In this document: in pieces, positions 1,738 to 58,970 of the stretch | How the letters are laid out: the number at the start of each line of letters is the position of its first letter | Numbering within the stretch: position 1 is the first letter of the stretch | DNA from: Nitrososphaeraceae archaeon | Lineage (GTDB): Archaea > Thermoproteota > Nitrososphaeria > Nitrososphaerales > Nitrososphaeraceae | Assembly: GCA_035250975.1 (NCBI GenBank) | Contig: DATFEP010000064.1 | Location: 32,001-96,000 of the forward strand | Direction of reading: 5' to 3' | Length of the DNA stretch: 64,000 nucleotides | Notes under the pieces: model-generated | The model's database searches: none | Told to the model about the DNA's origin: nothing | The model's input: the letters and a program-made list of their open reading frames with translations, nothing else | Translations under genes and position numbers: made by a program

Positions 1738-2775
1738 CTATCCACTGTTTTTGGCTAGAAACTTTACTAGATCCACTAGCCTGCATGCAAAACTCCATTC
1801 GTTATCGTACCATGAAAGAATCTTGACATATTTTCCCTTATTGTTTATTACCATTGTACTTAATCCGTCAACTATTGATGAATGACTATCTCCTATGATA
1901 TCAGAGGAAACAATAGGTTCCTCCGTATAAGATAATATATCCTTTAGATCCTCGTTAGATGCTTTCTTTAGCTCATTATTAATTTCATCTCTCGTGGCTT
2001 CCTTTTTTAAGTTTAGAACCATATCAGATATAGAACCGTTATTAACTGGAACTCGTAATGCCAGTCCATCAATTTTTCCTTCTAGTTCCGGAATTACTAT
2101 TCCTATTGCCTTAGCTGCTCCAGTAGTGGTAGGAATAATGGACATCATGGCAGATCGCGAACGTCTAAGGTCTTTATGATAAGAATCTAAAAGTCTCTGA
2201 TCATTAGTATAAGCATGTGTAGTTGTCATGTAACCACTTTCTATTCCAAATTTATCATTTAGAACTTTGATCACCGGGGCTATACAATTTGTAGTACATG
2301 ACGCCATCGAAATAATATTATGTTTTTGATTCTCATAAATTTGATTATTAACGCCCATAATTAGTGTCGCATCTGGATTTTTGGCAGGGGCGGAAATAAT
2401 TACTTTTCTTGCTCCCGCGAGTATGTGTTTTTGGGTATTTTCTTTGTCGTTAAACTTTCCTGATGATTCCAATACAAAAAATATGTTTAATTCCTTCCAT
2501 GGAAGCTTAGAGGGATCGCTTTCAGAAATGATATTTATCCTTTTATCTTTATTTATTATTAATACCTTATTAGTTTCGTCTATTTCAATATCTCCTTCAA
2601 ATTTTCCAAATGTAGAATCATACTTGAAGAGATGAGATAGTTCCTTTATGTTTGCAAGATCATTAATCGCCTTTATTTCAATGATATCATTAAATTCTTT
2701 GTCAAGAAGAGATGATTTTAGAAAGCTACGTCCTATTCTCCCAAAACCATTGATAGCTAGGTTTAACTTTAACAT
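1738..2775 (-). CDS. gap: Type I (bacterial-type) glyceraldehyde-3-phosphate dehydrogenase
   Basis: INGFGRIGR, ASCTTNC catalytic motif, TGAAKA, SWYDNEW. Confidence 0.95.
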   Translation of the reverse strand: MLKLNLAINGFGRIGRSFLKSSLLDKEFNDIIEIKAINDLANIKELSHLFKYDSTFGKFEGDIEIDETNKVLIINKDKRINIISESDPSKLPWKELNIFFVLESSGKFNDKENTQKHILAGARKVIISAPAKNPDATLIMGVNNQIYENQKHNIISMASCTTNCIAPVIKVLNDKFGIESGYMTTTHAYTNDQRLLDSYHKDLRRSRSAMMSIIPTTTGAAKAIGIVIPELEGKIDGLALRVPVNNGSISDMVLNLKKEATRDEINNELKKASNEDLKDILSYTEEPIVSSDIIGDSHSSIVDGLSTMVINNKGKYVKILSWYDNEWSFACRLVDLVKFLAKNSG

Positions 2776-2863
2776 ATTACGGATACGACTATTCTTTCTA
2801 TTAAGGTATTTTCTAATTCAATCAATAAATATAATTTATTTACTAGATAATCACAAGAGCATT

Positions 2864-3334
2864 ATGAATGAAAATAAAAAATTTTCAAAAATTTTAGTTC
2901 CCATTGATGGTTCTGAACATTCATTTCACGCATCTCAAGTAGCCCTTAACATAGCAGAAAAATTTAATGCAAAAGTAATTTGTTTATATGTTATTGTAGC
3001 TCCATCGCCACAAGAATATGTTAATTTGACTGGACTTGTTACGCCAAAACAAATCGAAAGGATAATTGATAACGCAAAGGAAGAATCCAAGGACTGGTTT
3101 GAAAGGATCAAGAATTCGGCAAAGGAAGACAAGATGCAGATTGAAATAACAACAGAAGTTATTTTGACCGGTTTGGCTGCATATGGTGAAATAATCCAAT
3201 TTGCTGAAAAGGAAAATATAGATTTGATAGTTATTGGCACAAGAGGGAGAACTGGATTTAAAAAGGTACTGTTGGGTAGTACTGCATCAGGAGTAGTAAC
3301 TTATGCTCATTGTCCAGTTATGGTGGTAAAATAA
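2864..3334 (+). CDS. Universal stress protein (USP)
   Basis: KILVPIDGSEHS and DLIVIGTRGRTG-x-LLGSTA...HCPV; start set at ATG 2864 because the longer ORF overlaps gap. Confidence 0.92.
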   Translation: MNENKKFSKILVPIDGSEHSFHASQVALNIAEKFNAKVICLYVIVAPSPQEYVNLTGLVTPKQIERIIDNAKEESKDWFERIKNSAKEDKMQIEITTEVILTGLAAYGEIIQFAEKENIDLIVIGTRGRTGFKKVLLGSTASGVVTYAHCPVMVVK

Positions 3335-4019
3335 ACAATCTTGGCAGTTCAAAAAAAATTCATATGAGTTTAATAAACTCAAATAAAAGATTCTATTTTT
3401 GTTTATTATTTTGTGTATTATGTTGTTTATATGAACAACACAGTCATCGAAGCATTACAAATCGTAATGCTATTTAGGGTAAAAAATATCAAAAATGTAA
3501 TTTCTTCAAAATTAAAAAAAGTCTTTTTTGGAATTGTCGGATTATATCTTATATCTATTTTCGACATGATTTTAACATAGAATATTCTTAGTCTATATCA
3601 TCGGTCCCACCTTCAGACTGGGAAATCATATTACCTTGGATTATATTGTGCTGATTTTTTTGGTATATTATTTGGTTTGATGTCGATAAAGGGTCATACT
3701 TTGTTTGCTTGGAAACATATTTAACATAAATATTTTTGTTCTATATGAGAAAATTCAAAAAAAAGGCGAATGATTCTTTTCCCAACAAATAACACTGGTA
3801 TATTCAGCATTAGGTTCCCTTGCAGATAATGGCTTTGACTTCCTTTCCAATGTAGAATCAGAAGTAAATAATCCTTCTATAGGGATTACCAGAGATATTT
3901 TTTTGATTATTTGTGTATTAATAATGGTAAATATTTCAATTTAATTAAGCTTAAAGTAAAATGTAAAAGATAAATAATAAATGTAAAAGATAATAATGAT
4001 AGGTGTACTAATCAAATAT

Positions 4020-4475
4020 ATGGATAAATTTACAAAGATACTAGCGCCAATTGATGGGTCAAAACCTTCTATGGATGCTGCAAATTATGCCCTATCACTC
4101 GCAAATAAATTTTCCTCCGAATTATATATCGTATCAGTAGTACCGTCTAAGGTAAAATATGGAGATTCTTCTGGTTTTTTCGGTATGGTTCCTCCTAAAT
4201 ACTTTGATAAATATAAAAAGGAAGCTGAAATATGGTTTGATGAAGTAAAAAAACGATTAGAAGACAGTGAAATTAAAAATATAAAGATAAATACAGAAGT
4301 AATAACAAGTCCACTTTCCATTTCTGGCACTATTTTGGAATATGCCGAAAATTTGAACATAGATCTTATCGTTACGGGAACCAAAGGCAAAACAGGATTC
4401 AAAAAATTATTAATCGGAAGTACCGCACAAGAAATAGTAACTTATGCACATTGCCCAGTATTAGTAGTTAGATAA
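4020..4475 (+). CDS. Universal stress protein (USP)
   Basis: KILAPIDGSKPS, GTKGKTG-x-LIGSTA, YAHCPVLVVR. Confidence 0.92.
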   Translation: MDKFTKILAPIDGSKPSMDAANYALSLANKFSSELYIVSVVPSKVKYGDSSGFFGMVPPKYFDKYKKEAEIWFDEVKKRLEDSEIKNIKINTEVITSPLSISGTILEYAENLNIDLIVTGTKGKTGFKKLLIGSTAQEIVTYAHCPVLVVR

Positions 4476-4691: not shown

Positions 4692-5534
4692 ATGGACGAG
4701 AAAGAAGAAGTAATAGCTGAGATGAGACATGATGTAAATCTTACATCAAATGATGGTAAAACTCTTGTATATTCTATGCCTGAATTTAAAAACATTGTAT
4801 TGAAAGATCCTGTTTTGATTGCAGGATTTCCTGGTCCTGGATTGGTGGGTTCTATATCTGTAAATTACCTCATAGAAAAATTGCAGATGAAACAGATTGG
4901 ATGTGTAGAATCTGAGTTTATCATTCCTGGAGTTATATATTATGATGGAAGATTGAGACACCCATTTAGACTCTATTCAAATCAAGAAGGCTCCTTATGT
5001 GTACTAGTATGTGAAGCACCAATTTTGATAAGAGGAATAAGTTCCGTCTTAAATCTCGTAATGAAATGGTGTAATAATAATAACGTACAGGAAGTTCTGG
5101 TGCTAGGGGGATTTTCTAGACCTGGTCTGGATAATTCAAAGAGAGAACCCTATATATTTTCAAGTATAAACGAAGATAGCGTACAAAAAACAAGTTTTGA
5201 CAGAAAAATAATCACGACTTATCTAGAACCCACGACTTTTATCGGAGGAATACCGGGGGGTTTATTATCATCATCTCTTGCAAACAACATCCCATGTACT
5301 GCATTATTCATTCCCTCACGAGATGACCTCCCAGATGCGGAAGGTGCTGCCATCATAATAGATGAAATAAATAAAATAACTAAGGATGAAAAACTAAAAG
5401 TGGATACATCTCAATTGAGACAAGAAGGAGAAAATTTGAAAAAAAGAATGTTAGAATTTATAGAATCTCTCCGTAAAGAAGTTTCTCGCGTACAGAAAGC
5501 ATCGGGGGAGGCAGAGCCAATCATTTATGGATAA
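4692..5534 (+). CDS. PAC2-family proteasome assembly chaperone
   Basis: PVLIAGFPGPGLVGSI, HPFRLY, PDAEGAA typical of archaeal PAC2 (PbaA/PbaB-like) proteins. Confidence 0.85.
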   Translation: MDEKEEVIAEMRHDVNLTSNDGKTLVYSMPEFKNIVLKDPVLIAGFPGPGLVGSISVNYLIEKLQMKQIGCVESEFIIPGVIYYDGRLRHPFRLYSNQEGSLCVLVCEAPILIRGISSVLNLVMKWCNNNNVQEVLVLGGFSRPGLDNSKREPYIFSSINEDSVQKTSFDRKIITTYLEPTTFIGGIPGGLLSSSLANNIPCTALFIPSRDDLPDAEGAAIIIDEINKITKDEKLKVDTSQLRQEGENLKKRMLEFIESLRKEVSRVQKASGEAEPIIYG

Positions 5535-6062: not shown

Positions 6063-7250
6063 TTAGCGGCCCTCCATGAATCGTCGCCTCTTTCTGGTAT
6101 ACTTTAAGATTTCATCATAATCAGCTCTTTCTTGCGCCGCATTTAGTATATCGGTTTTACTTACAATACCAATCAGTTTGAAATCATCATCAACTACAAA
6201 TATTCTGTTCATCCTTTTTCGAACTAACTGTTCTAAAGCATTATTAACTTGCATGTCTGATTTCATAACTATCAAATTTGATAGTGGTTGCATGATATCA
6301 ATTGTTTTTTTTTCAAAAAATGATTCTCCTTTGTTTAAAATATCATCTGTTGAAACCATTCCGAGTAGCACGGAATGATCATCAGTGACAGGGAAAGATC
6401 CTTTCCTATATATATCAAAGTAATCTGAAATCAAATTTCTTATTGATAAATCAGGTTTTACCGAGACAAAACTTGTGTTCATTATATCCTTTAACCTCAT
6501 ATCTTTCAGGAGATTTGACATTTCAAACTGTTGCAGATATGATTTCGCCCCACTTTGAATAAACCATCCGATGAGTATTAACCATAATCCCCCAATTGGA
6601 GAGGCCCTAATAATCACTACAACGCCTAATCCAATTAGAACAAATGAGATGATTATTCCAACTTGCACAGATATTTTCGTTGCACGCTGATAATCCAGCC
6701 ATCGAACCAAGGCAGCCCTTAACATCCTTCCACCGTCCATAGGAAAAGCAGGAAGCAGATTAAAAGCACCTAACAGTATATTCACAATGAAACCATAAAG
6801 TAAAACTCCTTTCAATACTTGAAGGTATGTTTCTGCTTCTATTCTTTCGGTACTAATGAAATTAATTAAAAGAAAAAATGATAAAAAAATGCCTCCTAAT
6901 CCAAAACTTGTTAATGGTCCTATCACAGCAATTTTGAATTCTTTTCTGAAATCCCGTGTTTCCTCTTTAATCTCAGAAATGCCTCCAAATATAAATAGAA
7001 TTATTTGATCTACTTTTACTCCATATTTGGTTGATAGAATAGAATGTGCTAATTCATGGATCAGTACGGAAACAAACAATATAATGGCGCCTGAAATTCC
7101 CATCACAACATACTCTGTTCTCGTCAAGTTAGGATAATAGTGTGGCATAAATCCAACTGATAAGGTCCAAGTAAGAAAAACAAAGATAAAGATTAATGTA
7201 AAATGTAATTTTATCGGAATATTTTTAATTTTTAATATCTGTAATGACAT
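6063..7250 (-). CDS. Site-2 (M50) intramembrane metalloprotease with C-terminal CBS pair
   Basis: HELAH, AVIGP, FNLLPAFPMDGGR, several TM helices, two CBS domains. Confidence 0.93.
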   Translation of the reverse strand: MSLQILKIKNIPIKLHFTLIFIFVFLTWTLSVGFMPHYYPNLTRTEYVVMGISGAIILFVSVLIHELAHSILSTKYGVKVDQIILFIFGGISEIKEETRDFRKEFKIAVIGPLTSFGLGGIFLSFFLLINFISTERIEAETYLQVLKGVLLYGFIVNILLGAFNLLPAFPMDGGRMLRAALVRWLDYQRATKISVQVGIIISFVLIGLGVVVIIRASPIGGLWLILIGWFIQSGAKSYLQQFEMSNLLKDMRLKDIMNTSFVSVKPDLSIRNLISDYFDIYRKGSFPVTDDHSVLLGMVSTDDILNKGESFFEKKTIDIMQPLSNLIVMKSDMQVNNALEQLVRKRMNRIFVVDDDFKLIGIVSKTDILNAAQERADYDEILKYTRKRRRFMEGR

Positions 7251-7925: not shown

Positions 7926-8345
7926 TTGACCGAACCTAAGGATATTTCAGCCAGTTATGACACTATATTAAAAGAAAGTGCTTTATTAACAACGTTCTCT
8001 GGAATTTTATTTGGATTCATATTAAATATTTCCATTAATCCTCCGATATCTTTTTCATACATTGATAAGGTTCTATTACTTATTGCATTGTATTCAATCA
8101 CCGTTGCGGCATGTCTTTTTGTCATGCCGATTATTTATCATCATATTCAATATCCATACCATGACTTTGAGAAGATTAGAAAAAGAAGTCATAGATTTAT
8201 ATTCACTGGACTTATTCCAGCCGGGGTAACACTGGTATTAGGTTTAGATATTGCAAGCTCAGCGTTGATTAACAGACCCGAGGCTTTTATTCTCTCGCTG
8301 ATACCAATCATAATGGTTCTAATATTATATATTAAAAGAAAATGA
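7926..8345 (+). CDS. Small 4-TM membrane protein (DUF6328-like)
   Basis: Four hydrophobic segments; LKES..L..GILFGF and P..YHH pattern; TTG start. Confidence 0.6.
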   Translation: MTEPKDISASYDTILKESALLTTFSGILFGFILNISINPPISFSYIDKVLLLIALYSITVAACLFVMPIIYHHIQYPYHDFEKIRKRSHRFIFTGLIPAGVTLVLGLDIASSALINRPEAFILSLIPIIMVLILYIKRK

Positions 8346-8545: not shown

Positions 8546-10330
8546 ATGAAAACAAATATTGAATTATCTAAATTATTTCGTAAAATAGCTTATTTAATGC
8601 AAGTAGATCATGATACCGGAAAAGATCCAAATGCAAAGTTTAAAATCAGAGCATATCTCAGAGCGGCAGAAACAATTGAAAATTTATCTATAGATTTGGA
8701 AGAAATATACCAAAAAAATGCTATTAAGGGATTAGTAAGCATCCCTTCTATAGGAAAGGCAATCGCTTTAAAAATAGAAGAATACATTAAAAATGGAAAA
8801 ATTCAGTTTTTTGAAGAATTAACAACAAGAATTCCCATAAATATAGATGAATTCTATGATCTAGAAGGAATTGGCATAGGTCCAAAAACCGTGAAAACGC
8901 TTTACGAGAATTTGAATGTCAGAACATTAGAAGATTTGGAGCATTATGCCAAATATGGAGAATTGAGAAAAGTAAAGGGCTTTTCTATTAAAAAGGAAGA
9001 ATCAATTTTGAAAAAAATTAAATCACTAAAAAACGTTAACAAAAAGAGATACCTTCTTGGAGATATTTATCCCATTGCAAAAACTATAGAGAATCTCCTG
9101 AAGAAATGTAAAGATGTAAAAAAAGTAGCAATTACAGGTTCATTTAGAAGAATGAAAGAAACTATAGGTGATATCGATTTTCTAGTAGAATCTGATAATC
9201 CTGATCATGTTATTGAATATTTTATCTCTCTGCCACAAATGGAGCAAATAATCGCAAAAGGTGAAACGAAGGTATTTGGAAGACTGGTTAACGGGATCGA
9301 TACCGACCTATTGGTGGTGCAAAAGAACAGTTTTGGATCTGCATTGCAATATTTTACTGGAAATAAAGAACATAACATAGAGTTAAGAAAAATTGCACTA
9401 ACAAAAAAAAATAGACTTAATGAATGGGGTCTTTTTAAAAGTAATGGAGAAAAAATAGCAGGTACAAATGAAGAAGAAATTTACAATAATCTGGGACTTA
9501 CTTGGATTCCCCCAGAATTGAGAGAAAACCATGGAGAGATCGAAATTTCCTCTGAATATTTCTCCAGAAATGAATTCATCTCGAATCTGGTAGAATACGG
9601 ATCTCTAAAAGGCGATTTACAAGTTCATACAAAATCATCTGATGGTACAAAATCTATAGAAGAGATGAGCGCTTCAGCCAGAGATGAATTTGGATTAAAC
9701 TACATAGCAATTACAGACCACACTAAGAGCTTAAAGATAGCGAATGGATTAGATGAAAATAGATTAATAAATCAAATAGAAGAGATAAATGAAATTAATG
9801 ATAATTTAAAAGAAAAAAATTCAAACAATAGTTTTAAAATTCTTTCATCTACTGAAGTAGAAATATTAAAGGATGGATCATTAGACATGAAAAACAGCAT
9901 CCTAGAAAACTTAGATATAGTAGGTGCATCGATTCATTCTAATTTTCGCCTTCCCTCCGAAGATCAAACAAAGAGAGTAATTGCTGCATTAAAAAATCCT
10001 CATGTAGACATATTATTCCATCCAACTGGTCGTATAATCAATAAGAGAGAGGGGTATGATATTGACATAGATAAAGTGATAGAAGTTGCTAAAGATACAA
10101 AAACTGTTCTTGAGATTAACGCCCACTATAATAGACTTGATTTAAAGGATGAATACGTTAGAAAGGCTATCAATAATAATGTTAAACTTGCCATTAATTC
10201 AGATGCACATCATCCACTTCATTTTTCTTTTTTAGTCTTCGGAATCGGTCAGGCAAGGAGAGGATGGGCAAAGCAATCTGACATAATTAATACATTACCA
10301 GTAAATGAAATGCTTCGAAATTTAAAATGA
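8546..10330 (+). CDS. polX: DNA polymerase X with PHP domain
   Basis: HhH motifs, GSFRR, GDID, YFTG, IPPELRE, C-terminal PHP (TDH, HPTGR, SDAH). Confidence 0.95.
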   Translation: MKTNIELSKLFRKIAYLMQVDHDTGKDPNAKFKIRAYLRAAETIENLSIDLEEIYQKNAIKGLVSIPSIGKAIALKIEEYIKNGKIQFFEELTTRIPINIDEFYDLEGIGIGPKTVKTLYENLNVRTLEDLEHYAKYGELRKVKGFSIKKEESILKKIKSLKNVNKKRYLLGDIYPIAKTIENLLKKCKDVKKVAITGSFRRMKETIGDIDFLVESDNPDHVIEYFISLPQMEQIIAKGETKVFGRLVNGIDTDLLVVQKNSFGSALQYFTGNKEHNIELRKIALTKKNRLNEWGLFKSNGEKIAGTNEEEIYNNLGLTWIPPELRENHGEIEISSEYFSRNEFISNLVEYGSLKGDLQVHTKSSDGTKSIEEMSASARDEFGLNYIAITDHTKSLKIANGLDENRLINQIEEINEINDNLKEKNSNNSFKILSSTEVEILKDGSLDMKNSILENLDIVGASIHSNFRLPSEDQTKRVIAALKNPHVDILFHPTGRIINKREGYDIDIDKVIEVAKDTKTVLEINAHYNRLDLKDEYVRKAINNNVKLAINSDAHHPLHFSFLVFGIGQARRGWAKQSDIINTLPVNEMLRNLK

Positions 10331-10570: not shown

Positions 10571-11047
10571 ATGACAGAGGATAAAGAGACTATAGGAACC
10601 ATTTTAGTTCCGCATGATGGAACAGAGATGTCTGATAAGGCCCTCAAGAAAGCAGAATTACTCTCAAGAGCTTCAGGTTCTCAAATTATCGTTATACATG
10701 TTATTGATGACAGATTTATAGCTTCTAGCGATGCAGTGAGATTTATCAAGGATAAGACGTCATTAGAAAATGCAAAGGTACAATTAATAAAAAGTTTAAG
10801 AGAAGGCGCTGAATACATGTTGAAAAATAAAATTGACTATTTCAAGGAAAGAAATACAACGATAACATCTGTTTTGACCGTTGGCTCACCAGCTGATCAA
10901 ATTCTACAGACGGCAAAGGAAAAAAATGTAGGTCTAATTATCATTGGTAGTAGAAGATTTGAAGGAAATGAGAAGGTAAAATTGTTAGGTAGTGTTGCAC
11001 GAAAAGTATCCGAGTTATCTTCATGTCCTGTATTAATAGTTCATTAA
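10571..11047 (+). CDS. Universal stress protein (USP), divergent copy
   Basis: ILVPHDGTEMS, GSPADQI, LLGSVARKV..SCPVLIV. Confidence 0.9.
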   Translation: MTEDKETIGTILVPHDGTEMSDKALKKAELLSRASGSQIIVIHVIDDRFIASSDAVRFIKDKTSLENAKVQLIKSLREGAEYMLKNKIDYFKERNTTITSVLTVGSPADQILQTAKEKNVGLIIIGSRRFEGNEKVKLLGSVARKVSELSSCPVLIVH

Positions 11048-11147: not shown

Positions 11148-12548
11148 TTATACAGATTTTGAAAGATTAGATGCTACAATATTCATTGGCTCCCACACTG
11201 GTGAAATTGGTGGCACATAACAGGCATCATAACTCGAAAGATCGTTAATAGTGGCTTTTTTTAATAAAGCTAATGCAACGACATCTATCCTTCCCTTTAC
11301 TCCTTCGCCGCCTATAATTTGAGCTCCTAAAATTTGTTCAGTCTTTTTATCGGCTACAATTTTAATCGAAATTGATTTACTATCAGGATAATATCCAGCT
11401 TTAGTAATACTGTTTATAGATGTTTCAACTGGATCAAAACCATTATTTCTAGCTTCTTCTGTACTAAGACCTGTTTTTCCTATAAATAAACCAAATGTCT
11501 TTGTGATAGCACTGCCTGCAATTCCCCGAAAAATTGCCTTACCGCCTGCAGAGTTCTCTCCAGCTACTCGTCCCTGTTTGTTAGCAGTAGTCCCCAAGGG
11601 AAGATAAGTATCCTTACCAGTAACATAATTTTCTGCTGTAGCACAGTCCCCCGCTGCAAAAATATTTGAAATGTTGGTTTGCATGTATCTATCAACCTTT
11701 ATAGCTTTATTAATTCCGAGTTTTATTCCAGCATCTGAAGCTATCTCACTATTTGGTTTAACACCGGTCCCAAAAACCAAAAAATCAGATAAGATGGTTT
11801 TGCCTTTATTTGTTACAACCCCGTGAAAATTTTGATTGCCTAAAATTTTTTCCACTCTTTCTCCTAGTATTAATTTTATTCCATTATTTTCCAATTCCTG
11901 TTTAACAATATATGACATGTCTGTGTCTATTATTTTAGGCAATATTGAATTACCCGATCCAACAAGTGTTACTTCCAAACCTTGTTTTTTAAATGATTCA
12001 ACTATTTCAACACCTATTAGACCAGCTCCGACTACTAAACATGAATCTGGACGGTTATTTTCTAAAAATCTTTTTATCGCTATCCCATCATTCAAAGTTC
12101 GTAACGTAAAGATTCCGCTATTGATGTTTTGTATCCCTTGCAATGATGGTATAGTAGCACTGGCCCCTGTTGCGATAACGAGAGAATCATAAGCTATTAT
12201 TTTATTATCTTCTATATTTTTAGATACATAATCTCTAACAATTATTTGCTTTTTAGACGGTAATATTTTCAATGCTGACGTGTTTAGCAAAATATTGATA
12301 CCATATTTACTTTGGAATTCTTGAGCTGGTCTAGCAATCAGTTCTGAAAAATCATCGATTATTCCTTCCAGAACGTAAGGAAGTCCACAGGAACCATAAG
12401 ACACAATTGGTTCTTGTTGTATTATTGTAATATTGGCATCAGGATTAATCCTTTTTGCTTTTGATGCTGCACTAGTTCCTGCGGCAACACCACCTATAAT
12501 GACTATATCTTTTGGTTTCTTATTTCCAATACCAGAAAATTTGGTCAT
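11148..12548 (-). CDS. CoA-disulfide reductase / NADH oxidase family flavoprotein
   Basis: GGVAAG, SYGSCGLPY single redox Cys, ATGA, GAGLIG, GDCA, YVPPIS. Confidence 0.88.
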   Translation of the reverse strand: MTKFSGIGNKKPKDIVIIGGVAAGTSAASKAKRINPDANITIIQQEPIVSYGSCGLPYVLEGIIDDFSELIARPAQEFQSKYGINILLNTSALKILPSKKQIIVRDYVSKNIEDNKIIAYDSLVIATGASATIPSLQGIQNINSGIFTLRTLNDGIAIKRFLENNRPDSCLVVGAGLIGVEIVESFKKQGLEVTLVGSGNSILPKIIDTDMSYIVKQELENNGIKLILGERVEKILGNQNFHGVVTNKGKTILSDFLVFGTGVKPNSEIASDAGIKLGINKAIKVDRYMQTNISNIFAAGDCATAENYVTGKDTYLPLGTTANKQGRVAGENSAGGKAIFRGIAGSAITKTFGLFIGKTGLSTEEARNNGFDPVETSINSITKAGYYPDSKSISIKIVADKKTEQILGAQIIGGEGVKGRIDVVALALLKKATINDLSSYDACYVPPISPVWEPMNIVASNLSKSV

Positions 12549-13037: not shown

Positions 13038-13493
13038 CTACAGATTTTCTAGTAACATATATCTTGACATGGCCATTAAGACAGGATCCTTTGGTTCTTT
13101 TTCGCACATTTTTCTTCCAATGTCTCCAGAGGTAACTATACCATATAATGTATTATCCCTTACTACAGGAAGTCTTCTAATGCGATATTTTGTCATTATC
13201 CTTGCAATTTGATCCATGTACGTCTCGGGAGCTATCGTAATTAATGGTTGTGACATTACTTCCTGTGCGCTCGTAGTTTTAGGATCTTTATTTTTACTCA
13301 CTACCCTTCTGACTATATCTCTTTCTGTGATTATTCCTACAGGACGATCTTTTTCTGTTATTATTATACAACCAACGTTCTTTAGAGTCATTTTTTGAGT
13401 GATATCATAAATATTGTTTGTTACCTCTGCAGTTTCTAGTGGAATTGATGTCATTACCGACTCGATAGCAACTTTGTTATAGTTATTGCTCAT
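13038..13493 (-). CDS. Stand-alone CBS-pair protein
   Basis: VGIITERDIV, IRRLPVV, GIVTSGD; likely start MSNNY at 13493. Confidence 0.9.
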   Translation of the reverse strand: MSNNYNKVAIESVMTSIPLETAEVTNNIYDITQKMTLKNVGCIIITEKDRPVGIITERDIVRRVVSKNKDPKTTSAQEVMSQPLITIAPETYMDQIARIMTKYRIRRLPVVRDNTLYGIVTSGDIGRKMCEKEPKDPVLMAMSRYMLLENL

Positions 13494-13701
13494 ATGTCGT
13501 TTAAAAAAAATTATCGCTTTTATGTAATTGGTGTGCAATGCATTACAGAGTACTATGGTAAAAATAGTAAAGAGGATAGACATTTTAGCATAATACAATA
13601 TTCCTAGACATCCTCAAAGCTGAATAATATTATCTTCTGTTATCCTATACATATTACTAGTTCTAAAAAAGTTAAATCCTGGAACTGACATTTTACGATA
13701 G

Positions 13702-33334: not shown

Positions 33335-33709
33335 GTGATTATGTTGTCATTTTTCTGGCATTTAAAATTTGCTATTTTTATGTTTGAGATCGCTAAATCT
33401 GAATTGAATAAAAATAATTATGTAGTAGCTAATGCTGTCATTAAAACTTTTACAGAGATAATAGATGCCTATTTATCGAAGGCGAATAATCTTATTGATG
33501 AAGCAAGTTTAGAGGGATGGAAAGAAAGAATCCATTGGATGAGTGAAAATAATCATGAATTATTAAATGAATGGAAAATGGTGAATTCTCTTTGTTTTGA
33601 GATGATGAATCAGGGAAAATACTACAACAACGTTGCAATAAAATTAATAGAAATAGTTCAAAATAGACTAAATAAGATTGGATCAGATGATTACGGGGAT
33701 TACTTTTAA
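33335..33709 (+). CDS. Hypothetical helical protein
   Basis: 124-aa ORF starting 1 nt after the previous stop. Confidence 0.5.
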   Translation: MIMLSFFWHLKFAIFMFEIAKSELNKNNYVVANAVIKTFTEIIDAYLSKANNLIDEASLEGWKERIHWMSENNHELLNEWKMVNSLCFEMMNQGKYYNNVAIKLIEIVQNRLNKIGSDDYGDYF

Positions 33710-47901: not shown

Positions 47902-48396
47902 TTATGTAGACAGTTTATTGTTTGAATTTATTTCGACATTTATTGTCCAGATCATAAATGGATGGATAGCACATATATAACTATAAACTCCTTCACGTTC
48001 GAAGGTATATTCAAATTTGTCTCCCGGAAATAACATGTTTGAATCAAATAGCGAACTAGGTACTGAAATATTTTTCGAGTAATTTGAATTTATATTAGGA
48101 TCGTTATCTGAAACCTCGACAGTGTTAACAGTATGAATTGTGCTATCCTCATTTATCCATTCAACAGTGTCATCAATATGAATATTGGTTGGGTCTGGTA
48201 TAAAATGTGGAACAGTATCGGTGCCTGCACCTTGAGGAATAGTTATAATAACTTTTTGATTCATTGCATAAGAACTAGTAAACAAACTGCAAAAAAAGAA
48301 TAATAATACTAATAAAAGAATAATATTATATGTCATAAGGGAGCATTGAGTACTTATTGTATTATTAACATTTCTCCTAATAAGGACCATGAGCAA
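47902..48396 (-). CDS. Plastocyanin/azurin-like blue copper protein
   Basis: TM/signal, IHTV, YICAIHPFM type-1 Cu ligands; start uncertain. Confidence 0.85.
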   Translation of the reverse strand: MLMVLIRRNVNNTISTQCSLMTYNIILLLVLLFFFCSLFTSSYAMNQKVIITIPQGAGTDTVPHFIPDPTNIHIDDTVEWINEDSTIHTVNTVEVSDNDPNINSNYSKNISVPSSLFDSNMLFPGDKFEYTFEREGVYSYICAIHPFMIWTINVEINSNNKLST

Positions 48397-48678: not shown

Positions 48679-49146
48679 ATGATAATGGAAGATAGCAAAC
48701 ATATTCCTGCCGTAGAAGATATAATGACTCCAATGCCACTAGAAGTAATTAACCTTTCTGACGACGTATATATCGCATCAAAATTAATGAAGGAAAAGCA
48801 AATCAGTTCGATCATTGTTACAGACGAAGAAAAGCATCCAATTGGCATAATAACTGAACGTGACATAGTAAGACGGGTTGTATGCAATAAGAAAATTGCA
48901 TCAAATACATCTGTAGACTCAATTATGTCAAAACCATTGGTAACCGTTGAATCTAAAGCTAATATTGACGAAGCAGTAGCTATCATGATAAAAAACAAAA
49001 TTAGGAGACTGCCTATTGTTAAGGATGGTCATTTATATGGTATTATAACTACAACCGATTTGATTAGATATATGTTTCAGAAATATGTTACCGATAAGGA
49101 AATTTTGAAATCCCTATTAAGGTATAAGAAATACTGGGAAGAATAA
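48679..49146 (+). CDS. Stand-alone CBS-pair protein
   Basis: GIITERDIV, IRRLPIV, GIITTTD; paralog of 13038-13493. Confidence 0.9.
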   Translation: MIMEDSKHIPAVEDIMTPMPLEVINLSDDVYIASKLMKEKQISSIIVTDEEKHPIGIITERDIVRRVVCNKKIASNTSVDSIMSKPLVTVESKANIDEAVAIMIKNKIRRLPIVKDGHLYGIITTTDLIRYMFQKYVTDKEILKSLLRYKKYWEE

Positions 49147-49597: not shown

Positions 49598-50644
49598 ATG
49601 AGGATCAATACTTGTTTAATGCACGATGGATCTTTTTTAATAAAACATTGCAGAATAGTTTCAGTGTTTCTTATATTATTTTCGATGCTTTTGAGTCAGA
49701 TAATAATTGAAGAGTCATCCGCTGTTTCAAACCAAGTAGGTATTAAACAGATAACTTTAATTGCATATGAAAAGGTTCTACAAATAGCTCCAGATAATCA
49801 GTTCCATCCCGGTGGTATACTATATGAGGCGATGACATACAATGGCACTATTCCAGGTCCGACAATTGAATTAAACCAAGGCGACATTTTAAATCTAACT
49901 CTAAAGAACGCAGGTGATATAGTTCATAGCATTGATTTACACGGTATAAGCGGACCCAGCCAAGCAATATCTGGATCCTTAAAACCTGGTGAGAGTAAAA
50001 CTTGGCAAATTACGGCTGAAAACCCAGGAGTTTTTCTTTACCACTGTGATGGTGACAATCTAAATGGCATATGGGAACATATTTCAGGTGGTATGTATGG
50101 TGGTTTGGTAATACATCCTCCACAAGAAAAACCAGCAAAAGAATTTTTTATCGCATTTAACGAAATCTACAATAATAAAGATCTAGGTTTGTTTGTTGGA
50201 AATAATAATATAGTCGGATCATTTGATTTGACTAAATTCCTAAATAATCAGCCTGATTTGATCCTAACTAATGGGATGGCATTTAAATATTTTTCACTAA
50301 TGGGAACAATTGTTAAAATACAGTTAAATGAAAATGCAGATATGTTTAAAGTAAAAACAGGAGAATTAACTAGATGGCATATTATTAACGCAGGCCCCAG
50401 AAACGAAATTACTTTTAATTTTGCCGGCGGAATGATAGATAAAATTAATAATAATTTTAACGGATCAGTTATTAAAAATACAGTTCCTCGAAATTACGAG
50501 GTTTCTATTCCACCCGGAGGAGGAAAAATGATAGAGACAACGTTTCCAGAAGATGGCATCTATTTTGGAAACGATCATGACATGGGAAATTTGTTAAAAG
50601 GTGTAGGGTTTATAGTTTCTGCAGAAAAAAATGAGATGAAGTAA
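49598..50644 (+). CDS. Two-domain multicopper oxidase, NirK-like
   Basis: Signal peptide, NGTIPGP, HSIDLHG, YHC-x10-H-x4-M, NAGP, NDH. Confidence 0.82.
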   Translation: MRINTCLMHDGSFLIKHCRIVSVFLILFSMLLSQIIIEESSAVSNQVGIKQITLIAYEKVLQIAPDNQFHPGGILYEAMTYNGTIPGPTIELNQGDILNLTLKNAGDIVHSIDLHGISGPSQAISGSLKPGESKTWQITAENPGVFLYHCDGDNLNGIWEHISGGMYGGLVIHPPQEKPAKEFFIAFNEIYNNKDLGLFVGNNNIVGSFDLTKFLNNQPDLILTNGMAFKYFSLMGTIVKIQLNENADMFKVKTGELTRWHIINAGPRNEITFNFAGGMIDKINNNFNGSVIKNTVPRNYEVSIPPGGGKMIETTFPEDGIYFGNDHDMGNLLKGVGFIVSAEKNEMK

Positions 50645-50896: not shown

Positions 50897-51499
50897 ATGC
50901 AAAATGAAAATAACAAAAATGAAAAAATAAACGTTGTAGGAATAAAGGTTTTGGAACAAAATGGAATTAATATAGATGAAATAACGAAATTATTGGTATA
51001 TAACGCCTCAGTAGAATTTGCGGCTTATTACTATTTTACTAATTTAAGGATGCATTGTACAGGACAAGACGGAGAAAGTATTAAAGGAGTTATAGAGGAT
51101 GCAAGATTAGAAGATTTAAGTCATTTTGAATCATCTTTGTCGAGAATATATGAATTGGGGGCAATACTACCTATTGATGCCCAAGATTTCATAAGGATGT
51201 CGGGTTGTGAATTCCTTCAACTCCCTTCGCCTAACAAAACAGATTTAAAAGAAATACTACAAAAATGTTTAAAAGCGGAGCAAGGAGCTATAGTAAATTG
51301 GAATAAGTTATGTAACCTAACTAATGGTAAAGATCCTGCAACTTACGACATAGCCAAGGATATTCTACGAGAAGAGATTGAACATGAATCTTGGTTTTTA
51401 GAGTTACTGTATGCAAGACCATCAGGACATATGAGAAGGAAGTTTCCTGGAGAACGTCCTCACACGCATAAACACTCTAGATCATTAAATCTAGTATAA
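50897..51499 (+). CDS. dpsL: Dps-like ferritin-superfamily protein (DpsL)
   Basis: EFAAYYY, EDARLEDLSHFE, RIYELG, GKDPATY, EEIEHE, SGH. Confidence 0.88.
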   Translation: MQNENNKNEKINVVGIKVLEQNGINIDEITKLLVYNASVEFAAYYYFTNLRMHCTGQDGESIKGVIEDARLEDLSHFESSLSRIYELGAILPIDAQDFIRMSGCEFLQLPSPNKTDLKEILQKCLKAEQGAIVNWNKLCNLTNGKDPATYDIAKDILREEIEHESWFLELLYARPSGHMRRKFPGERPHTHKHSRSLNLV

Positions 51500-53414: not shown

Positions 53415-53428
53415 TTACCTCAAAATAA

Positions 53429-55696: not shown

Positions 55697-57655
55697 TTAT
55701 TTTTCTCCATGTTCTGTTCGAGTTTTTAGTCTCGTTATGTCTCTTTTGAAGAATAGATCTATAAACCAGTCCAACATTACTCTCAATTTTCTTTCAGTAG
55801 TTGGAAGATTTCCCCAGTAATATAGTCGCCAGAATATCCATCCAATAAAACCATGAATTTTGTGTCCAAATACTAAACCTACACCATTTCTTTTTCCTAC
55901 AAGAGCCATCATACCTTTAGTTTTGTAGTTAAAAACTAATTCTTCTTTCTTCTTGTTTTTCTTTGAGTATATTTCATTAATTATGTTGTTAGATACTATT
56001 TTAGCTGCCCTTAATGCATGCTGAGCTGTAGGTGGATATGGTTTTCCAGTATTAGGGTCGATTATAAAAGCACAATCTCCTAGTGCAAAAATATTTGTAT
56101 ATCCATTTACTTTTAGGTGTTCGTTAGTAATTATTTTTCCTGATTTATCATGTTCGCAATTTAAATTGCTTATAATGTTATTCGGTTTAACTCCTCCCGC
56201 CCAAATTACTGTATCACTGCATATTCTCTCTTCATCGTTTAATAATACATAATTCTCATCTATCTCTTTAACTCTTTTATTTAAGATAATTTGAACTCCA
56301 TTTTTTTCGAGTTTGTTTAGAGTAAATTCTGATAAATCATCTGAGACTTCTGGTAAAATTCGTGAACCAGAATTTATCAATATTATTTTAATATATTTGA
56401 TATCAATGTTGTGATAATACTGTTTAACAGAATCACGAACAAAATCATTTAATTCTCCAACAGTTTCTATACCAGAAAAGCCGCCTCCCACCACTACAAA
56501 TGTCATTAATCTTTTTTGTAATTCTATATTTTCATATTCCATATCAGCTTGCTCAAGCATATTTATAACATGATCTCGCAATAACAACGCATCACCAATA
56601 GTCTTTATGGTGAATGCATTTTTAGATGCACTTTCTATGTCAAAAAAATTGGTTTCTCCTCCAAGCGCTAAAACTAGATAATGATATTTTAGAACTTTGA
56701 TTTTACTGTTTGATAAATTGGAATACTTACCTATGTTATATCTAATGCTTACTTCCTTTTCTTCAAGATTTATAGAATCAATATTTGCCTCATAAAATCT
56801 AGCTCTTTTACAAAATGACCTAATAGGTGTAATTATATGTCTTGTCTCTATTGCACTTGCAGCTACTTCTGGGAGCATAGGCGTGAAGAGAAAAAAATTA
56901 TCTCTACTTACAATTGTTATATCTATATCAATTTGATCTTGAAATTCCTTTTGTAACTGTTGTAATATTTTTATTCCAGCAAATCCACCACCCAAAATCA
57001 CTATCCTTTTTAGTTCTATTGGTTTGGTGCCATGTATTAGTTCAGCATGTTTTTGATATGAATCAATTCTACCTAAAGATATATCGCACTTTGCACACCT
57101 ATATCGAGTACCAAATTTTATAGAAAGGCTAGAAGAAACAAGACCTACAGTAATACCAAAAATGAGGTGGGTAACTAGAGAACCTATCAAAACAGTTGTC
57201 AATTGTGATGAAAGTTCTGATTCAATCAGTTCTTTTTCATAATTAGTGGATTCCTGGAGCATACTTATTGTTTCAGGAGATAGAACAAATTGATATACTG
57301 GTATAAAGAAAACTATGAATACTACAGTACCAGCAAAAATTCCATATATTATTCCATTGGATGGCTTACTAATATTTAATATGCCAGTTTTATACAAAAA
57401 GATGCCTACCACAACTCCTATTGAAATAGCAGTTAACATATGTATCCCTATACCAGCTAATATTGCATCTGATGAATATACTCCAATTACATGTCCAAAA
57501 ACTATCCATGATAAGTAATAAGGCATTCCCATTACTACTTCAAAAATTGTTTTAGGAATAACAAAAACGACTGCACCTGCAATAGCGCCAACTACTACAA
57601 AAAATATTTCTCTCTTTAGAGAAAAATCTATTTTTACTTTAGTATAATTGCTCAT
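55697..57655 (-). CDS. NDH-2-like FAD/NAD(P)H oxidoreductase fused to an N-terminal TM domain and a C2H2 finger
   Basis: About 4 TM, CxxC-x12-H-x4-H, GGGFAG, FTPMLPE, GGGFSGIE, WAGG, LGD, TAQHA. Confidence 0.87.
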   Translation of the reverse strand: MSNYTKVKIDFSLKREIFFVVVGAIAGAVVFVIPKTIFEVVMGMPYYLSWIVFGHVIGVYSSDAILAGIGIHMLTAISIGVVVGIFLYKTGILNISKPSNGIIYGIFAGTVVFIVFFIPVYQFVLSPETISMLQESTNYEKELIESELSSQLTTVLIGSLVTHLIFGITVGLVSSSLSIKFGTRYRCAKCDISLGRIDSYQKHAELIHGTKPIELKRIVILGGGFAGIKILQQLQKEFQDQIDIDITIVSRDNFFLFTPMLPEVAASAIETRHIITPIRSFCKRARFYEANIDSINLEEKEVSIRYNIGKYSNLSNSKIKVLKYHYLVLALGGETNFFDIESASKNAFTIKTIGDALLLRDHVINMLEQADMEYENIELQKRLMTFVVVGGGFSGIETVGELNDFVRDSVKQYYHNIDIKYIKIILINSGSRILPEVSDDLSEFTLNKLEKNGVQIILNKRVKEIDENYVLLNDEERICSDTVIWAGGVKPNNIISNLNCEHDKSGKIITNEHLKVNGYTNIFALGDCAFIIDPNTGKPYPPTAQHALRAAKIVSNNIINEIYSKKNKKKEELVFNYKTKGMMALVGKRNGVGLVFGHKIHGFIGWIFWRLYYWGNLPTTERKLRVMLDWFIDLFFKRDITRLKTRTEHGEK

Positions 57656-58301
57656 TATAAAATATCAGCCTCCTTACAAATTGTTTATTAATTTTCATGA
57701 ACTTGTATTTATATTTGGATACAAACATTGCGAAAAACCAACCAATTCAATGAGCCGAACTTTAATTTGATACCCGTATCATATTTTTTTATATTAGTGT
57801 GATTAATTATCAATAATTTTATCCTGAATAAGTAGAATATATGTATCTGCTTTAATTATTAAAGAAAAAATTAAAAGATTAAAGAAAAATTACTGTATGA
57901 ATATGCTGGGGATAATTTCATCCATTAAAGTCTATTTTCTACAAAATTTTATGTTTGATGATGAAATGACTAATTACTCCAATAAGAATAAAACAAATAA
58001 ATATCAACGACAGGAAAACAAATCCATATTCAATTACAAATAATTTTGGTATAGTGAATCTTTTCATATTCATTTTTTTTATTGTTATAAGATTCTATTA
58101 TTTTAAAGATCCATAGAATATTATTAGATTACCTAAAACGGTTCAATTTATTCATTAACGGTTAATCAAAGATAATCAAAAATTGAGATGATAGCAACTT
58201 AACGAGTTCTCTTTGTTTTTAAATGTTAAGAGAATATGAAATAGTCACATCTAGGTATTAATTCTCATCTTATTTTCATAACAAATGAATTAATTAAAGA
58301 A

Positions 58302-58970
58302 TTATTGTTTATCCAAAGTGCTGTTTATTAAAAGTTTTCCCAGTGTGGTTATCGTAACTGAGATTTTATTGCGATCTCCTTTTTCTACATCCGCTAGACC
58401 TAATTCAGCAAGTCCCTTTGCTTCTCTTGAGCCTTGTATATGATAACTTAAAAGCGGTTTTCCAAATCCAGAAATTTTTTCTAACTGGTCAAAACTTTCA
58501 ACATTACCGCCTGCACTATCTAAAGCTACAAGAATTTTTTTCTTTGCATCTGATATAATCTCATTATAGCTAAGTTTCAAAACAGGCATCATAAGCGGAT
58601 TTGTATGAGTGTAATCCATTCCAAATGCTTTTACACCGTGTATAAAAGCTGTAGAAAGCGCAGCACAACCTAGTAATTTATCTCCACAGCTGACATTCAT
58701 CAATATATCATCAAATTCTTTACCATGTATTTGCAATACCTCGTTTATTTGATCCATCGTGTCCCTTATTACATTCTCTTTGGCAACTAAGGTAATCGTT
58801 ATGGGAAGACCTAGTATACTTTTAATCCTTCTTGAAAAGTCTTCTGCTTTACTTTTATCCTCATGAAAGCACAGTAATACAAGCTTGTGAATTGGAAATG
58901 TTTTGATCCCAAATGCTATTGCATCTTGGCCATCTGTACCAAATGTCGCGATCTGCAGAGTTTTCATCAT
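58302..58970 (-). CDS. CARF-like plus winged-HTH regulator (Csa3/DUF6293-like)
   Basis: IATFG, NVSCGDK in a Rossmann-like N-domain; LSYHI and ITTLGK in the wHTH. Confidence 0.72.
   Translation of the reverse strand: MMKTLQIATFGTDGQDAIAFGIKTFPIHKLVLLCFHEDKSKAEDFSRRIKSILGLPITITLVAKENVIRDTMDQINEVLQIHGKEFDDILMNVSCGDKLLGCAALSTAFIHGVKAFGMDYTHTNPLMMPVLKLSYNEIISDAKKKILVALDSAGGNVESFDQLEKISGFGKPLLSYHIQGSREAKGLAELGLADVEKGDRNKISVTITTLGKLLINSTLDKQ

Follow-up and report, generated by a model that had tools for sequence, protein, structure and literature searches.

A conserved gene island with a candidate role in energy stress and quiescence, joined to a reduced [NiFe] hydrogenase, in soil Nitrososphaeraceae

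The DNA considered here, termed the window, is a stretch of 64,000 nt (positions 32,001–96,000 of contig DATFEP010000064.1, hereafter C15, of assembly GCA_035250975.1) from a Nitrososphaeraceae archaeon, in which genes for universal stress proteins (USPs), CBS-domain proteins, a putative ribosome hibernation factor of the HibA type and a [NiFe] hydrogenase lie together. The genome (G000; 2.49 Mb, 91 contigs, 94.6% complete) has a GC content of about 0.30, similar to that of the window (0.28–0.34). Archaeal amoA was found in it (394 bits, genome-wide profile search) and the nearest database relatives of the hydrogenase are metagenome-assembled genomes (MAGs) named Nitrososphaeraceae; the organism is therefore a soil-type ammonia-oxidising archaeon (AOA). 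An earlier note on this DNA, here called the original prediction, had likewise taken it for an ammonia oxidiser and had described the region as an archaeal mirror of the mycobacterial DosR dormancy regulon. Gene content was determined by a Pfam scan of 56 open reading frames (ORFs) of the window and an NCBIfam scan of ten of them. The comparative sample consisted of 61 genomes of the family from 18 genera, G000 included, with G040 entering the tallies only; stretches of the relatives were searched with all 55 window proteins, and two genome pairs correspond to one another (G005 = G010, of genus g6, and G002 = G017, of the window's own genus).

Gene content of the window and of contig C74

Every family listed in the original prediction was recovered from the ORF listing and the Pfam and NCBIfam scans (Table 1). 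USPs are represented by four genes and CBS-pair proteins by two; the others are a metalloprotease of the M50 site-2 type that ends in a CBS pair (M50-CBS), a kinase-fold protein, a P-type ATPase, a hydrolase of the DLH type, an NDH-2-like flavoprotein, the CBS protein bearing an HPF fold, and the hydrogenase. Some of the finer labels fared less well. The ATPase had been called CtpF-like; it passes the MgtA equivalog model and is therefore not of that type. The ORF that had been called 'Rv2004c-like' gave no Pfam or NCBIfam match and scored 0.98 in a protein atlas to clusters in which PF01636 (APH) is present in 28–53% of members; it can only be called an APH-like kinase-fold protein.

Genome-wide, 12 USP matches were found, four of them (92–108 bits, against a Pfam cut-off of 24) in the window, which holds 2.6% of the genome. 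CBS-bearing frames numbered 18, with four in the window, four on contig C74 and one in the left flank on C15. Window and C74 together represent 4.0% of the genome, yet they hold 5 of the 12 USP matches and 8 of the 18 CBS frames. The scan-statistic bound for the window USPs was 0.03 when taken over 64 kb and 7e-4 over the 17.4 kb that they span, both values being post hoc.

Contig C74 (36.7 kb; loci L084 and L085) has its homolog inside the island of the closest relative (G001), where an insertion of ~40 kb between the hydrogenase cluster and HibA corresponds to it (19 best matches). Judged by this arrangement, C74 is a second piece of the same island. Pfam was run on 20 of its ORFs, its USP comes from the genome-wide USP search, and a 510-aa ORF (C74:19264–20796) lay outside the scan. 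Besides the USP, the contig encodes a second P-type ATPase (822 aa), three CBS proteins (144–356 aa), a 258-aa protein with four CBS domains (4xCBS), an Hsp20, a NAPRTase adjoining an isochorismatase-family gene, a PRTase, a biotin carboxylase and a DUF255 thioredoxin-like protein. The Hsp20, NAPRTase, PRTase and 4xCBS protein recur in the islands of other genera.

Conservation of the neighbourhood among relatives

The synteny comparison that the original prediction had proposed, made here within the family, went in favour of that prediction, the genes being co-located in relatives and not scattered. In G001 (about 90% amino acid identity), 41 of the 55 window ORFs were found at 68% identity or more and in the same order from PHP_C to ferritin. 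A 76-kb contig of G005/G010, whose hydrogenase is 77% identical to that of the window, carries the hyd and hyp genes, 6 of the 10 USPs of that genome, HibA, a CBS pair, DLH, PAC2, DUF6328, AMP phosphorylase and a multicopper oxidase (MCO), in an order that differs from the window. Similarly, contig C1 of G002 holds hyd and hyp genes, DLH, a gene like that for the CoA-disulfide-reductase-like flavoprotein, three USPs, another P-type ATPase, an MCO and CBS genes, and contig C12 of G017/G002 presents counterparts of the left third of the window (PHP_C, GAPDH, USPs 1, 2 and 4, both CBS pairs, the APH-like protein and the CoA-transferase).

The comparison extends to a genus in which no hydrogenase match was found. 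Three complete g2 genomes (G006, G037 and G048) hold 7, 8 and 6 USPs within 57, 69 and 39 kb, respectively, with scan-statistic bounds of 3e-5 to 2e-4. GAPDH, M50-CBS, CBS pairs, the conserved 284-aa protein, CoA-transferase and VIT1 were found in all three of these islands. G006 and G037 share the rhodanese–metallo-beta-lactamase fusion, G006 and G048 each have a P-type ATPase match, and DUF6328 was found in G037. Of the g2-island ORFs with a match in G000 (50, 55 and 31), 9, 11 and 9 had their best match in the window and 9, 8 and 9 on C74, whereas size alone would predict about one each. In two control stretches that surround HibA genes of G006, 0 of 17 and 1 of 15 matches fell in the window. 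Single-copy, non-paralogous families, namely GAPDH, CoA-transferase, VIT1, M50-CBS, NAPRTase and Hsp20, recur across genera at 40–74% identity. On these comparisons the clustering is judged to exceed both chance and close kinship, with the same families co-located, in shuffled order, in at least three genera, and the comparison between genera is a stronger argument than the statistics within the genome.

Family-wide, USPs were found in all 61 genomes, M50-CBS in 39 (14 genera), the HibA-type gene in 22 (7 genera, at E ≤ 1e-40) and the hydrogenase in 7 (2 genera, g1 and g6). HydL and HibA are separated by 5–9 kb in G000, G053, G010 and G027 and by 48 kb in G001. The distance between M50-CBS and HibA is 2–6 kb in G013, G050 and G020 and no more than 13 kb in G027. 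In G024, G025, G050 and G056 a USP is found less than 3 kb from M50-CBS, as in the window, where PAC2 stands between them. Positions were listed for 150 of the 688 family-wide USP matches, so that these proximities are examples and not rates. In eight genomes (G007, G011, G018, G032, G047, G054, G057 and G065) the M50-CBS match falls in a frame of 624–662 aa, compared with about 400 aa, which suggests an extra fused domain in several genera.

The borders of the island were drawn from its flanks. Beyond GAPDH, the left flank consists of purine biosynthesis, ArgRS and tRNA methyltransferase genes, and the island therefore begins near 1.7 kb. On the right, synteny with G001 stops after ferritin, and an integrase-like frame follows 3 kb further on in that genome. 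In the window the next features are DUF3179, DUF7482, the NDH-2-like gene, a transposase of the IS240 type and the split ORFs of an aldehyde dehydrogenase and a patatin; G001 lacks the segment from DUF3179 to NDH-2 and beyond. The NDH-2-like enzyme named in the original prediction is present, with a 215-aa N-terminal extension that has no Pfam match, but neither this gene nor DUF3179 or DUF7482 has an ortholog in any compared region. The NDH-2 end (about 52–59 kb) is thus outside the conserved island, not being kept even in the closest relative. The aldehyde dehydrogenase (61786–63179) and the patatin-like phospholipase (63185–63999) each fall into two ORFs that adjoin or overlap, which may be frameshifts, pseudogenes or assembly errors.

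The variable right end is one of several features that would be expected if the genes were co-located without a common function, in a recombination-tolerant, flexible region that gathers tandem paralogs and mobile-element cargo, its programme-like look being owed solely to the abundance of USP and CBS genes. In the available part of the study of Krupovic et al. 2019 (PMC6563490), UspA (16 elements), CBS (13, 9 and 9) and MCO (9) are among the 20 commonest arCOGs of thaumarchaeal integrated elements, so that a mobile history is plausible for parts of the island. Transposase genes of the IS240 type, or fragments of them, were found in or near the window and most of the compared islands, the genera differ in gene order, G001 has an integrase-like frame past the end of synteny, ORFs are split at 61.8–64 kb and the hydrogenase looks horizontally acquired. 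Against this, no integrase was found on C15, on C74 or inside the g2 islands (PF00589 matches in G000 lie on C13, C9 and C57 only), the 64-kb window contains no tRNA and no Rfam family, and its GC content is genome-like. The single-copy families recur together across genera, and neither of the control regions maps to the window. Such a flexible region is considered an improbable explanation of the whole, and an integrated mobile element was rejected for want of an integrase on C15 or C74 and of a tRNA in the window. The conserved linkage of these families in AOA was not found in print in the literature searches made; the Abby 2020, Atacama, LFLS and cave papers contained nothing on AOA hydrogenases or USP islands, and papers on AOA biofilms and on Nitrosocosmicus traits likewise yielded nothing on the island.

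The HibA-type gene, the hydrogenase and the accompanying genes

The 391-aa CBS–HPF protein had been assigned to ribosome hibernation in the original prediction, and the structural models agree with this. The whole-protein model (pLDDT 82) presents four beta-alpha repeats at the N-terminus, and its top Foldseek matches were 4xCBS modules, including those of ribosome-bound SriA, SriD and Dri, the CBS modules swamping the list. When the C-terminal domain was modelled alone, from seven window and locus sequences (pLDDT 82.6), all 26 of the best rows listed by Foldseek were HPF, RaiA, pY, MPY or RafH folds (best E = 3.6e-6, TM 0.65; RafH 8wi7_w, E = 1.9e-4). The HPF domain was invisible to sequence searches, whether by Pfam (whole protein, and the C-terminal 116 aa at E up to 10) or against the PDB by phmmer of the C-terminal part or with a profile built from 31 homologs. 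The protein has 738 relatives in the database at E ≤ 0.001, the best 120 listed having 363–394 aa, and some bear the JGI name 'CBS domain-containing protein/ribosome-associated translation inhibitor RaiA'. According to the available parts of two papers of 2026 (Nat Commun, PMC13324472; EMBO J, PMC13728122), HibA/AHA consists of four CBS domains (1–269) and an HPF/RaiA-like domain (270–392), spans both ribosomal subunits, suppresses translation, protects 70S ribosomes and is widespread in Archaea, Nitrososphaerales included; ribosome binding and translation inhibition are reported there for the HibA proteins of P. abyssi and T. barophilus. The window gene fits a member of the HibA family and would encode a putative ribosome hibernation factor.

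The hydrogenase was predicted to be group-3b-like, and this holds for the large subunit. HydL retains both Ni–Fe cysteine motifs, and its best PDB matches are the alpha subunits of the T. kodakarensis and P. furiosus sulfhydrogenase I (SHI), aligned at full length (E = 3e-56); its best NCBIfam models, ShyA (269 bits against a cut-off of 700) and HydA, scored far under the family cut-offs. The small subunit departs from the group. HydS aligns only to residues 3–149 of the 261-aa SHI delta subunit and does not have the ~260-aa, three-Fe–S-cluster form of group 3b; it is short and, given this and its Cys pattern, probably holds the proximal Fe–S cluster alone. No beta/gamma diaphorase genes were found beside hydSL in the neighbourhoods scanned, namely those of the window, the clusters of the relatives and two of two DPANN/CPR loci (L012 and L034). 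By its sequence, the enzyme is best described as group-3b-like but reduced, of two subunits and without neighbouring diaphorase genes. Across 46 loci the conserved unit is formed by the short HydS, HydL and the endopeptidase.

Besides the Nitrososphaeraceae MAGs, the nearest relatives of the hydrogenase are DPANN and Patescibacteria genes. In a quick hydrogenase tree (41 rows, being 40 of the 46 loci and the window, without the partial loci L017, L018, L022, L042, L044 and L046), the 12 Nitrososphaeraceae sequences were monophyletic (SH-aLRT 99) and sister to three from Aenigmatarchaeota (95), within DPANN under a midpoint rooting that does not establish the root. The hydrogenase thus looks horizontally acquired. 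A CBS, USP or HibA gene stands within 10 kb in each of the 10 Nitrososphaeraceae hydrogenase loci for which 4 kb or more of additional flank was at hand; among 33 DPANN and bacterial loci a CBS match was found only at L033, the queries being less sensitive at that distance. Two genes of the class-II-aldolase/adducin family in the hyp/hyd cluster are conserved in the Nitrososphaeraceae loci and absent from the DPANN/CPR loci. To our knowledge, there is no link between this family and hydrogenases. No report of a [NiFe] hydrogenase in mesophilic Nitrososphaeraceae was found in the literature searches.

The remaining genes are collected in Table 1. The AMP phosphorylase was considered as part of the archaeal AMP–RuBisCO pathway and this was rejected; no RuBisCO_large match was found in G000 (94.6% complete) and the usual archaeal AMP pathway therefore seems incomplete. 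The rhodanese–metallo-beta-lactamase fusion has an architecture that we take to be that of persulfide dioxygenases. The Nramp gene of G001 (G001:C10:224051–227400, locus L048) matches in three pieces at 88–94% identity and may be disrupted. In an intergenic gap, a 60-aa ORF (47600–47782, minus strand) shows an AN1/Tc5-like zinc-finger pattern, its Pfam matches being all sub-threshold.

Table 1. Annotated features of the window with supporting matches and counterparts in relatives.
Feature	Coordinates	Strand	Evidence	Counterparts in relatives
Type-I GAPDH, left edge of island	1738..2775	-	Gp_dh_C 215 bits, Gp_dh_N 101 bits	63–65% identity in USP islands of three g2 genomes, 73% in G017:C12
USP 1	2864..3334 (ORF opens 2648; domain from residue 79)	+	PF00582 108 bits	
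USP 2	3996..4475	+	PF00582 99.5 bits	
PAC2-family protein	4692..5534	+	PF09754 112 bits	46% copy adjoining USP in G005:C2
M50 site-2-type metalloprotease with C-terminal CBS pair	6063..7250	-	Peptidase_M50 77 bits, CBS 72 bits	
DUF6328 membrane protein	7926..8345	+	PF19853 34 bits	Copies in G005:C2 and G037 island
PolX-PHP DNA polymerase	8546..10330	+	DNA_pol_B_thumb, HHH_8, PHP	Among compared regions only in G001
USP 3	10571..11047	+	PF00582 92 bits	
CoA-disulfide-reductase/NADH-oxidase-like flavoprotein	11148..12548	-	Pyr_redox_2, Pyr_redox_dim; TIGR03385 432 bits, below cut-off 579	
CBS-pair protein A	13038..13598	-	CBS 79.5 bits, 2 stretches	
Nramp metal transporter	13702..14976	+	PF01566 241 bits	
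Conserved 284-aa protein, weak cupredoxin likeness	15140..15994	-	Pfam matches all sub-threshold	41–49% copies in G005:C2 and all three g2 islands
MgtA-type (IIIB) P-type ATPase	16766..19294	-	TIGR01524 734 bits, cut-off 611	57% copy in G048 island
USP 4	19578..20042	+	PF00582 108 bits	
APH-like kinase-fold protein	20217..21221	-	HGDLxxxN kinase motif	60–62% copies in G003:C92 and G017:C12
CoA-transferase	22397..24043	+	PF01144 106 bits	62–74% copies in all three g2 islands and G017:C12
DLH-type alpha/beta hydrolase, divergent from hypF	24145..24807	-	DLH 38.6 bits, cut-off 21	Divergent DLH–HypF pair kept in G001, G005, G002 and loci L002, L010, L043
HypF	25087..27375	+	Five HypF domains	
HypC	27430..27744	+	PF01455 74 bits	
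HypD	27741..28850	+	PF01924 388 bits	
Class-II-aldolase-family protein within hyp operon	28870..29652	+	PF00596 58 bits	
HycI/HoxW-type maturation endopeptidase	29649..30056	+	Weak Pfam HycI match, E 0.008	Adjoins HydL in most of 46 homolog loci
[NiFe]-hydrogenase large subunit (HydL), group-3b-like	30025..31302	-	RICGTC and DPCMSCASH motifs intact	
Short hydrogenase small subunit (HydS), 159–178 aa	31295..31831	-	Oxidored_q6 63 bits	
HypE	31936..33054	+	AIRS, AIRS_C	
92-aa Zn-ribbon protein after hypE	33055..33333	+	Two CxxC pairs; Pfam sub-threshold only	Position 3' of HypE conserved in Nitrososphaeraceae loci
124-aa protein, no family match	33335..33709	+		Conserved 3' of Zn-ribbon gene in relatives
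Second class-II-aldolase-family protein	33720..34373	-	PF00596 118 bits	59–62% copies in hyd clusters of relatives
HibA/AHA-type putative ribosome hibernation factor, 4xCBS and HPF fold (391 aa)	39670..40845	+	CBS 98 bits, 3 stretches	
AMP phosphorylase	42185..43723	+	TIGR03327 570 bits, cut-off 535	Near HibA in G001, G005, L001
VIT1 iron/manganese transporter	44469..45155	-	PF01988 221 bits	51–57% copies in all three g2 islands
Rhodanese and metallo-beta-lactamase fusion	45279..46751	+	Rhodanese 98 bits, Lactamase_B 60 bits	46–48% copies in G006 and G037 islands
Plastocyanin-like blue copper protein	47902..48396	-	PF00127 28 bits	
CBS-pair protein B	48679..49146	+	CBS 97 bits, 2 stretches	
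Multicopper oxidase	49598..50644	+	Cu-oxidase_3, Cu-oxidase_2	55–68% copies near hyd clusters of G005 and G002
Ferritin-like protein, last gene collinear with G001	50897..51499	+	PF00210 74.5 bits	98% copy in G001
NDH-2-like flavoprotein	55697..57655	-	Pyr_redox_2 158 bits; NDH2_C 29.0, cut-off 27.7	
IS240-type DDE transposase	59482..60147	-	PF13610 35 bits	

Interpretation and comparison with known systems

It is proposed that the segment from about 1.7 to 51.5 kb, together with C74, constitutes a conserved energy-stress and quiescence island of the Nitrososphaeraceae, joined in two genera to an acquired, reduced hydrogenase; confidence in this reading is evenly balanced. The genes would be under common regulation, with energy limitation as the trigger and oxygen shortage as one likely case of it. 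The USPs and CBS pairs, as small nucleotide-binding sensors, would read the adenylate state, and HibA would plug and preserve the ribosomes. Proteostasis may be served by the M50-CBS intramembrane protease, Hsp20 and PAC2, and the NAD and adenylate pools may be kept by the NAPRTase with its isochorismatase-type amidase, the PRTase and the AMP phosphorylase. MgtA, Nramp, VIT1 and the ferritin-like protein would account for metal management, and the hydrogenase could either discharge reductant as H2 or take it up in that form, by way of a further partner.

The metal genes could also be taken as the core of the locus, which would then be a metal, oxidative and reactive-sulfur stress island instead of an energy or hypoxia island. 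Nramp, VIT1, the ferritin-like protein, MgtA, the multicopper oxidase and blue copper proteins are consistent with this, as are the CoA-disulfide-reductase-like flavoprotein, the rhodanese–metallo-beta-lactamase fusion, the DUF255 thioredoxin-like protein of C74 and PolX. However, HibA, the hydrogenase, NAD salvage, AMP phosphorylase and the many USP and CBS sensors would be left unaccounted for, and of the compared regions, only that of the closest relative contained Nramp, ferritin and PolX. This explanation is considered very unlikely.

A number of observations weigh against the energy-stress island. The motif discovery called for by the original prediction found no word or dyad upstream of island genes that scored above random sets. 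The search covered exact 6–8-mers and 4-N(1–14)-4 dyads, a crude test that a degenerate motif could escape; the best pattern was ATTAnnTAAT (10 of 38 window promoters compared with 86 of 1719 in the genome, p = 8.7e-6), and its score was equalled by 33% of 60 random contiguous promoter sets. Similarly, 44 USP promoters from G000 and six fetched regions (dyad spacers 1–12; the near-identical G001 and the fused or atypical C2, C56 and G003 rows left out) gave a best value of 8e-5, against a null median of 1.6e-4 and a minimum of 1e-6. An island-wide motif was rejected as evidence, given that random sets score as well, which does not prove its absence. The window yielded neither a recognisable transcription factor nor a two-component gene, there being no Response_reg, HTH or kinase domain among its 56 ORFs or the 20 ORFs of C74, and no evident regulator among the small ORFs (40–89 aa) of the intergenic gaps. 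Most island genes are monocistronic, with gaps of 100–1200 bp, the hyp and hyd genes forming three short operons. In addition, HypA (23.8 against 28.9 bits) and HypB (78 against 121 bits for the model) did not exceed their cut-offs genome-wide, both matches lying elsewhere in the genome, and maturation of the hydrogenase is therefore uncertain.

Further points of this kind concern the clustering. The best matches of USP and CBS proteins are partly paralogous, by which the reverse-match counts of the g2 islands are inflated, although the single-copy families carry the signal too. Tandem duplication is one way in which USP clusters can form, and integrated elements of Thaumarchaeota typically carry USP, CBS and MCO genes as cargo (PMC6563490). 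HibA was not found in the g2 USP islands, nor is any of the four USPs listed (of 11) for the complete genome G019 close to M50-CBS. Apart from these matters, an 18-base unit, GATGATACAATATTGGAT, was seen in three tandem copies directly upstream of a USP-like gene (G005:C2, about 8400–8499; L055).

Evidence of expression comes from contigs of soil RNA libraries (four runs from three studies, 90–99% alike), which include HibA in pieces of 1195 and 1037 nt and portions of hypC/D, hydS/L and hypE, of one aldolase-family gene and of an ORF without family assignment. Parts of the 25–45 kb region have no cover in runs X17–X20, and habitat is indicated only by 'soil/rhizosphere' labels. These contigs carry no level, strand or condition and DNA carry-over is possible, which also counts against the proposal. 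The RNA contigs of X17, X18 and X19 skip the same in-frame 69 bases (23 codons; 41296–41366) inside the ORF at 41228–41566, probably a strain variant.

Reports on cultured and symbiotic AOA bear on the trigger. In the available part of a preprint on two Nitrosopumilus-like sponge symbionts, 17–20 genes change in hypoxia, including UspA copies, HSP20, CBS-domain genes, PII and regulators, and the USP, HSP20 and CBS transcripts go up. In N. maritimus, HSP20, several UspA and CBS proteins are up at the highest growth temperature, again from a partly available source, and these families are therefore general stress markers, a further reservation about the proposed island. An Hsp20 of N. viennensis has been linked to energy stress, and the N. 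maritimus paper, of 2026, states that the roles of AOA USPs 'remain largely unknown', both according to the accessible portions of the texts. By analogy with these organisms, the USP, Hsp20 and CBS families respond to hypoxia in AOA, but not to hypoxia alone, the likeness being one of families.

The DosR mirror claimed in the original prediction is supported in part: the overlap of families is suggestive and their clustering is conserved, but it falls short as regards a regulator, a shared motif and the types of ATPase and hydrogenase. The DosR membership of the M. tuberculosis genes that it named is stated in a review, and the DosR table in the available part of that review holds Rv2031c, Rv0573c (NAPRTase), Rv0571c (PRTase) and Rv1997; the Hsp20, NAPRTase, PRTase and second P-type ATPase of C74 lengthen the shared list. 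Several features are common to the two systems, namely numerous USPs, an M50-CBS protease next to USPs and not far from a CBS pair (compare Rv2623–Rv2626c), an HPF-fold factor (Rv0079/RafH), a small heat-shock protein, a NAPRTase, a PRTase and P-type ATPases, arranged in few chromosomal blocks. The island could accordingly be read as a low-oxygen-specific dormancy regulon, functionally convergent with DosR, switched by hypoxia and using the hydrogenase for fermentative H2. The hypoxia response of the two marine symbionts agrees with this, as does a review (PMC10432482) in which group 3b enzymes are said to be able to evolve H2 fermentatively, with citation of an M. smegmatis hypoxia study. The absence of a DosR-like two-component regulator had been noted in the original prediction and was confirmed, since no DosR/DosS/DosT genes were found among the window and C74 ORFs, nor a Dev-box-like motif in the promoters. 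Nitroreductases, NarK2/NarX, NrdZ and Tgs1 were not seen in the window or C74 scans. The hydrogenase has no NAD(P)-linked subunits alongside and occurs in only 7 of the 61 genomes, the USP island being wider, the same families respond to heat and the window ATPase is of the MgtA type. A regulon specific to low oxygen is considered unlikely. The archaeal island differs additionally in its 4xCBS–HPF fusion as putative hibernation factor and in its two-subunit hydrogenase, the likeness being one of families and not of orthologs. According to the accessible part of the source, M. smegmatis possesses a group 3b hydrogenase too. This enzyme is reportedly under DosR control.

The proposed energy-stress island would have consequences beyond this locus. 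Ammonia-oxidising archaea dominate nitrification in many soils, and their survival of anoxic microsites, waterlogging and substrate gaps is little understood. The island offers a defined set of genes that can be tracked in cultures and metatranscriptomes, and a natural setting for the study of HibA. Its parts belong to known families; neither the conserved linkage of these in AOA nor a hydrogenase of this type in mesophilic Nitrososphaeraceae was met with in the literature searched, and such a hydrogenase would widen the metabolic picture of AOA. In a bolder and rather doubtful version, some soil AOA, held to be obligate aerobes, would have taken up a reduced two-subunit hydrogenase from archaea of the DPANN type and wired it into an older quiescence island found throughout the family, surviving anoxia or starvation by ribosome hibernation and by venting or harvesting H2, in convergence with DosR and without DosR itself. 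Should the convergence with the dormancy regulon of actinobacteria, seen at the level of families, prove functional, it would suggest a general toolkit of aerobes facing energy loss.

Other known systems resemble parts of the island. Clustered USP, CBS and multicopper-oxidase genes are likewise found in the thaumarchaeal integrated elements (PMC6563490), whereas the island has no integrase or tRNA target, and its content is shared across genera and lies alongside housekeeping-type genes. The lxa locus of Burkholderia cenocepacia (PMC3721108), in the text of which 'universal stress protein' appears 15 times, is also a chromosomal locus tied to anoxic persistence; it is bacterial and, in the part of the paper available, low-oxygen induction is shown for it. 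The window protein and the described HibA/AHA are of near-equal length (391 and 392 aa) and of the same architecture, the former being known from its sequence and model, and genomic linkage to hydrogenase, USPs or M50-CBS is not mentioned in the available parts of those papers (PMC13324472, PMC13728122). With the group 3b enzymes P. furiosus SHI and T. kodakarensis Hyh, the window hydrogenase shares a full-length large subunit, the Ni–Fe cysteine motifs, HypC, D, E and F and an endopeptidase, but it is without the long delta subunit and the adjoining beta and gamma genes. According to a 2023 review, true AOA hydrogenases have been described only for thermophilic 'Ca. Nitrosocaldus', as a four-subunit 3b enzyme (PMC10432482). 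This is likewise a cytoplasmic 3b-type [NiFe] hydrogenase of an ammonia oxidiser, of untested function, whereas the enzyme reported here is encoded by two genes and belongs to a mesophilic soil Nitrososphaeraceae host.

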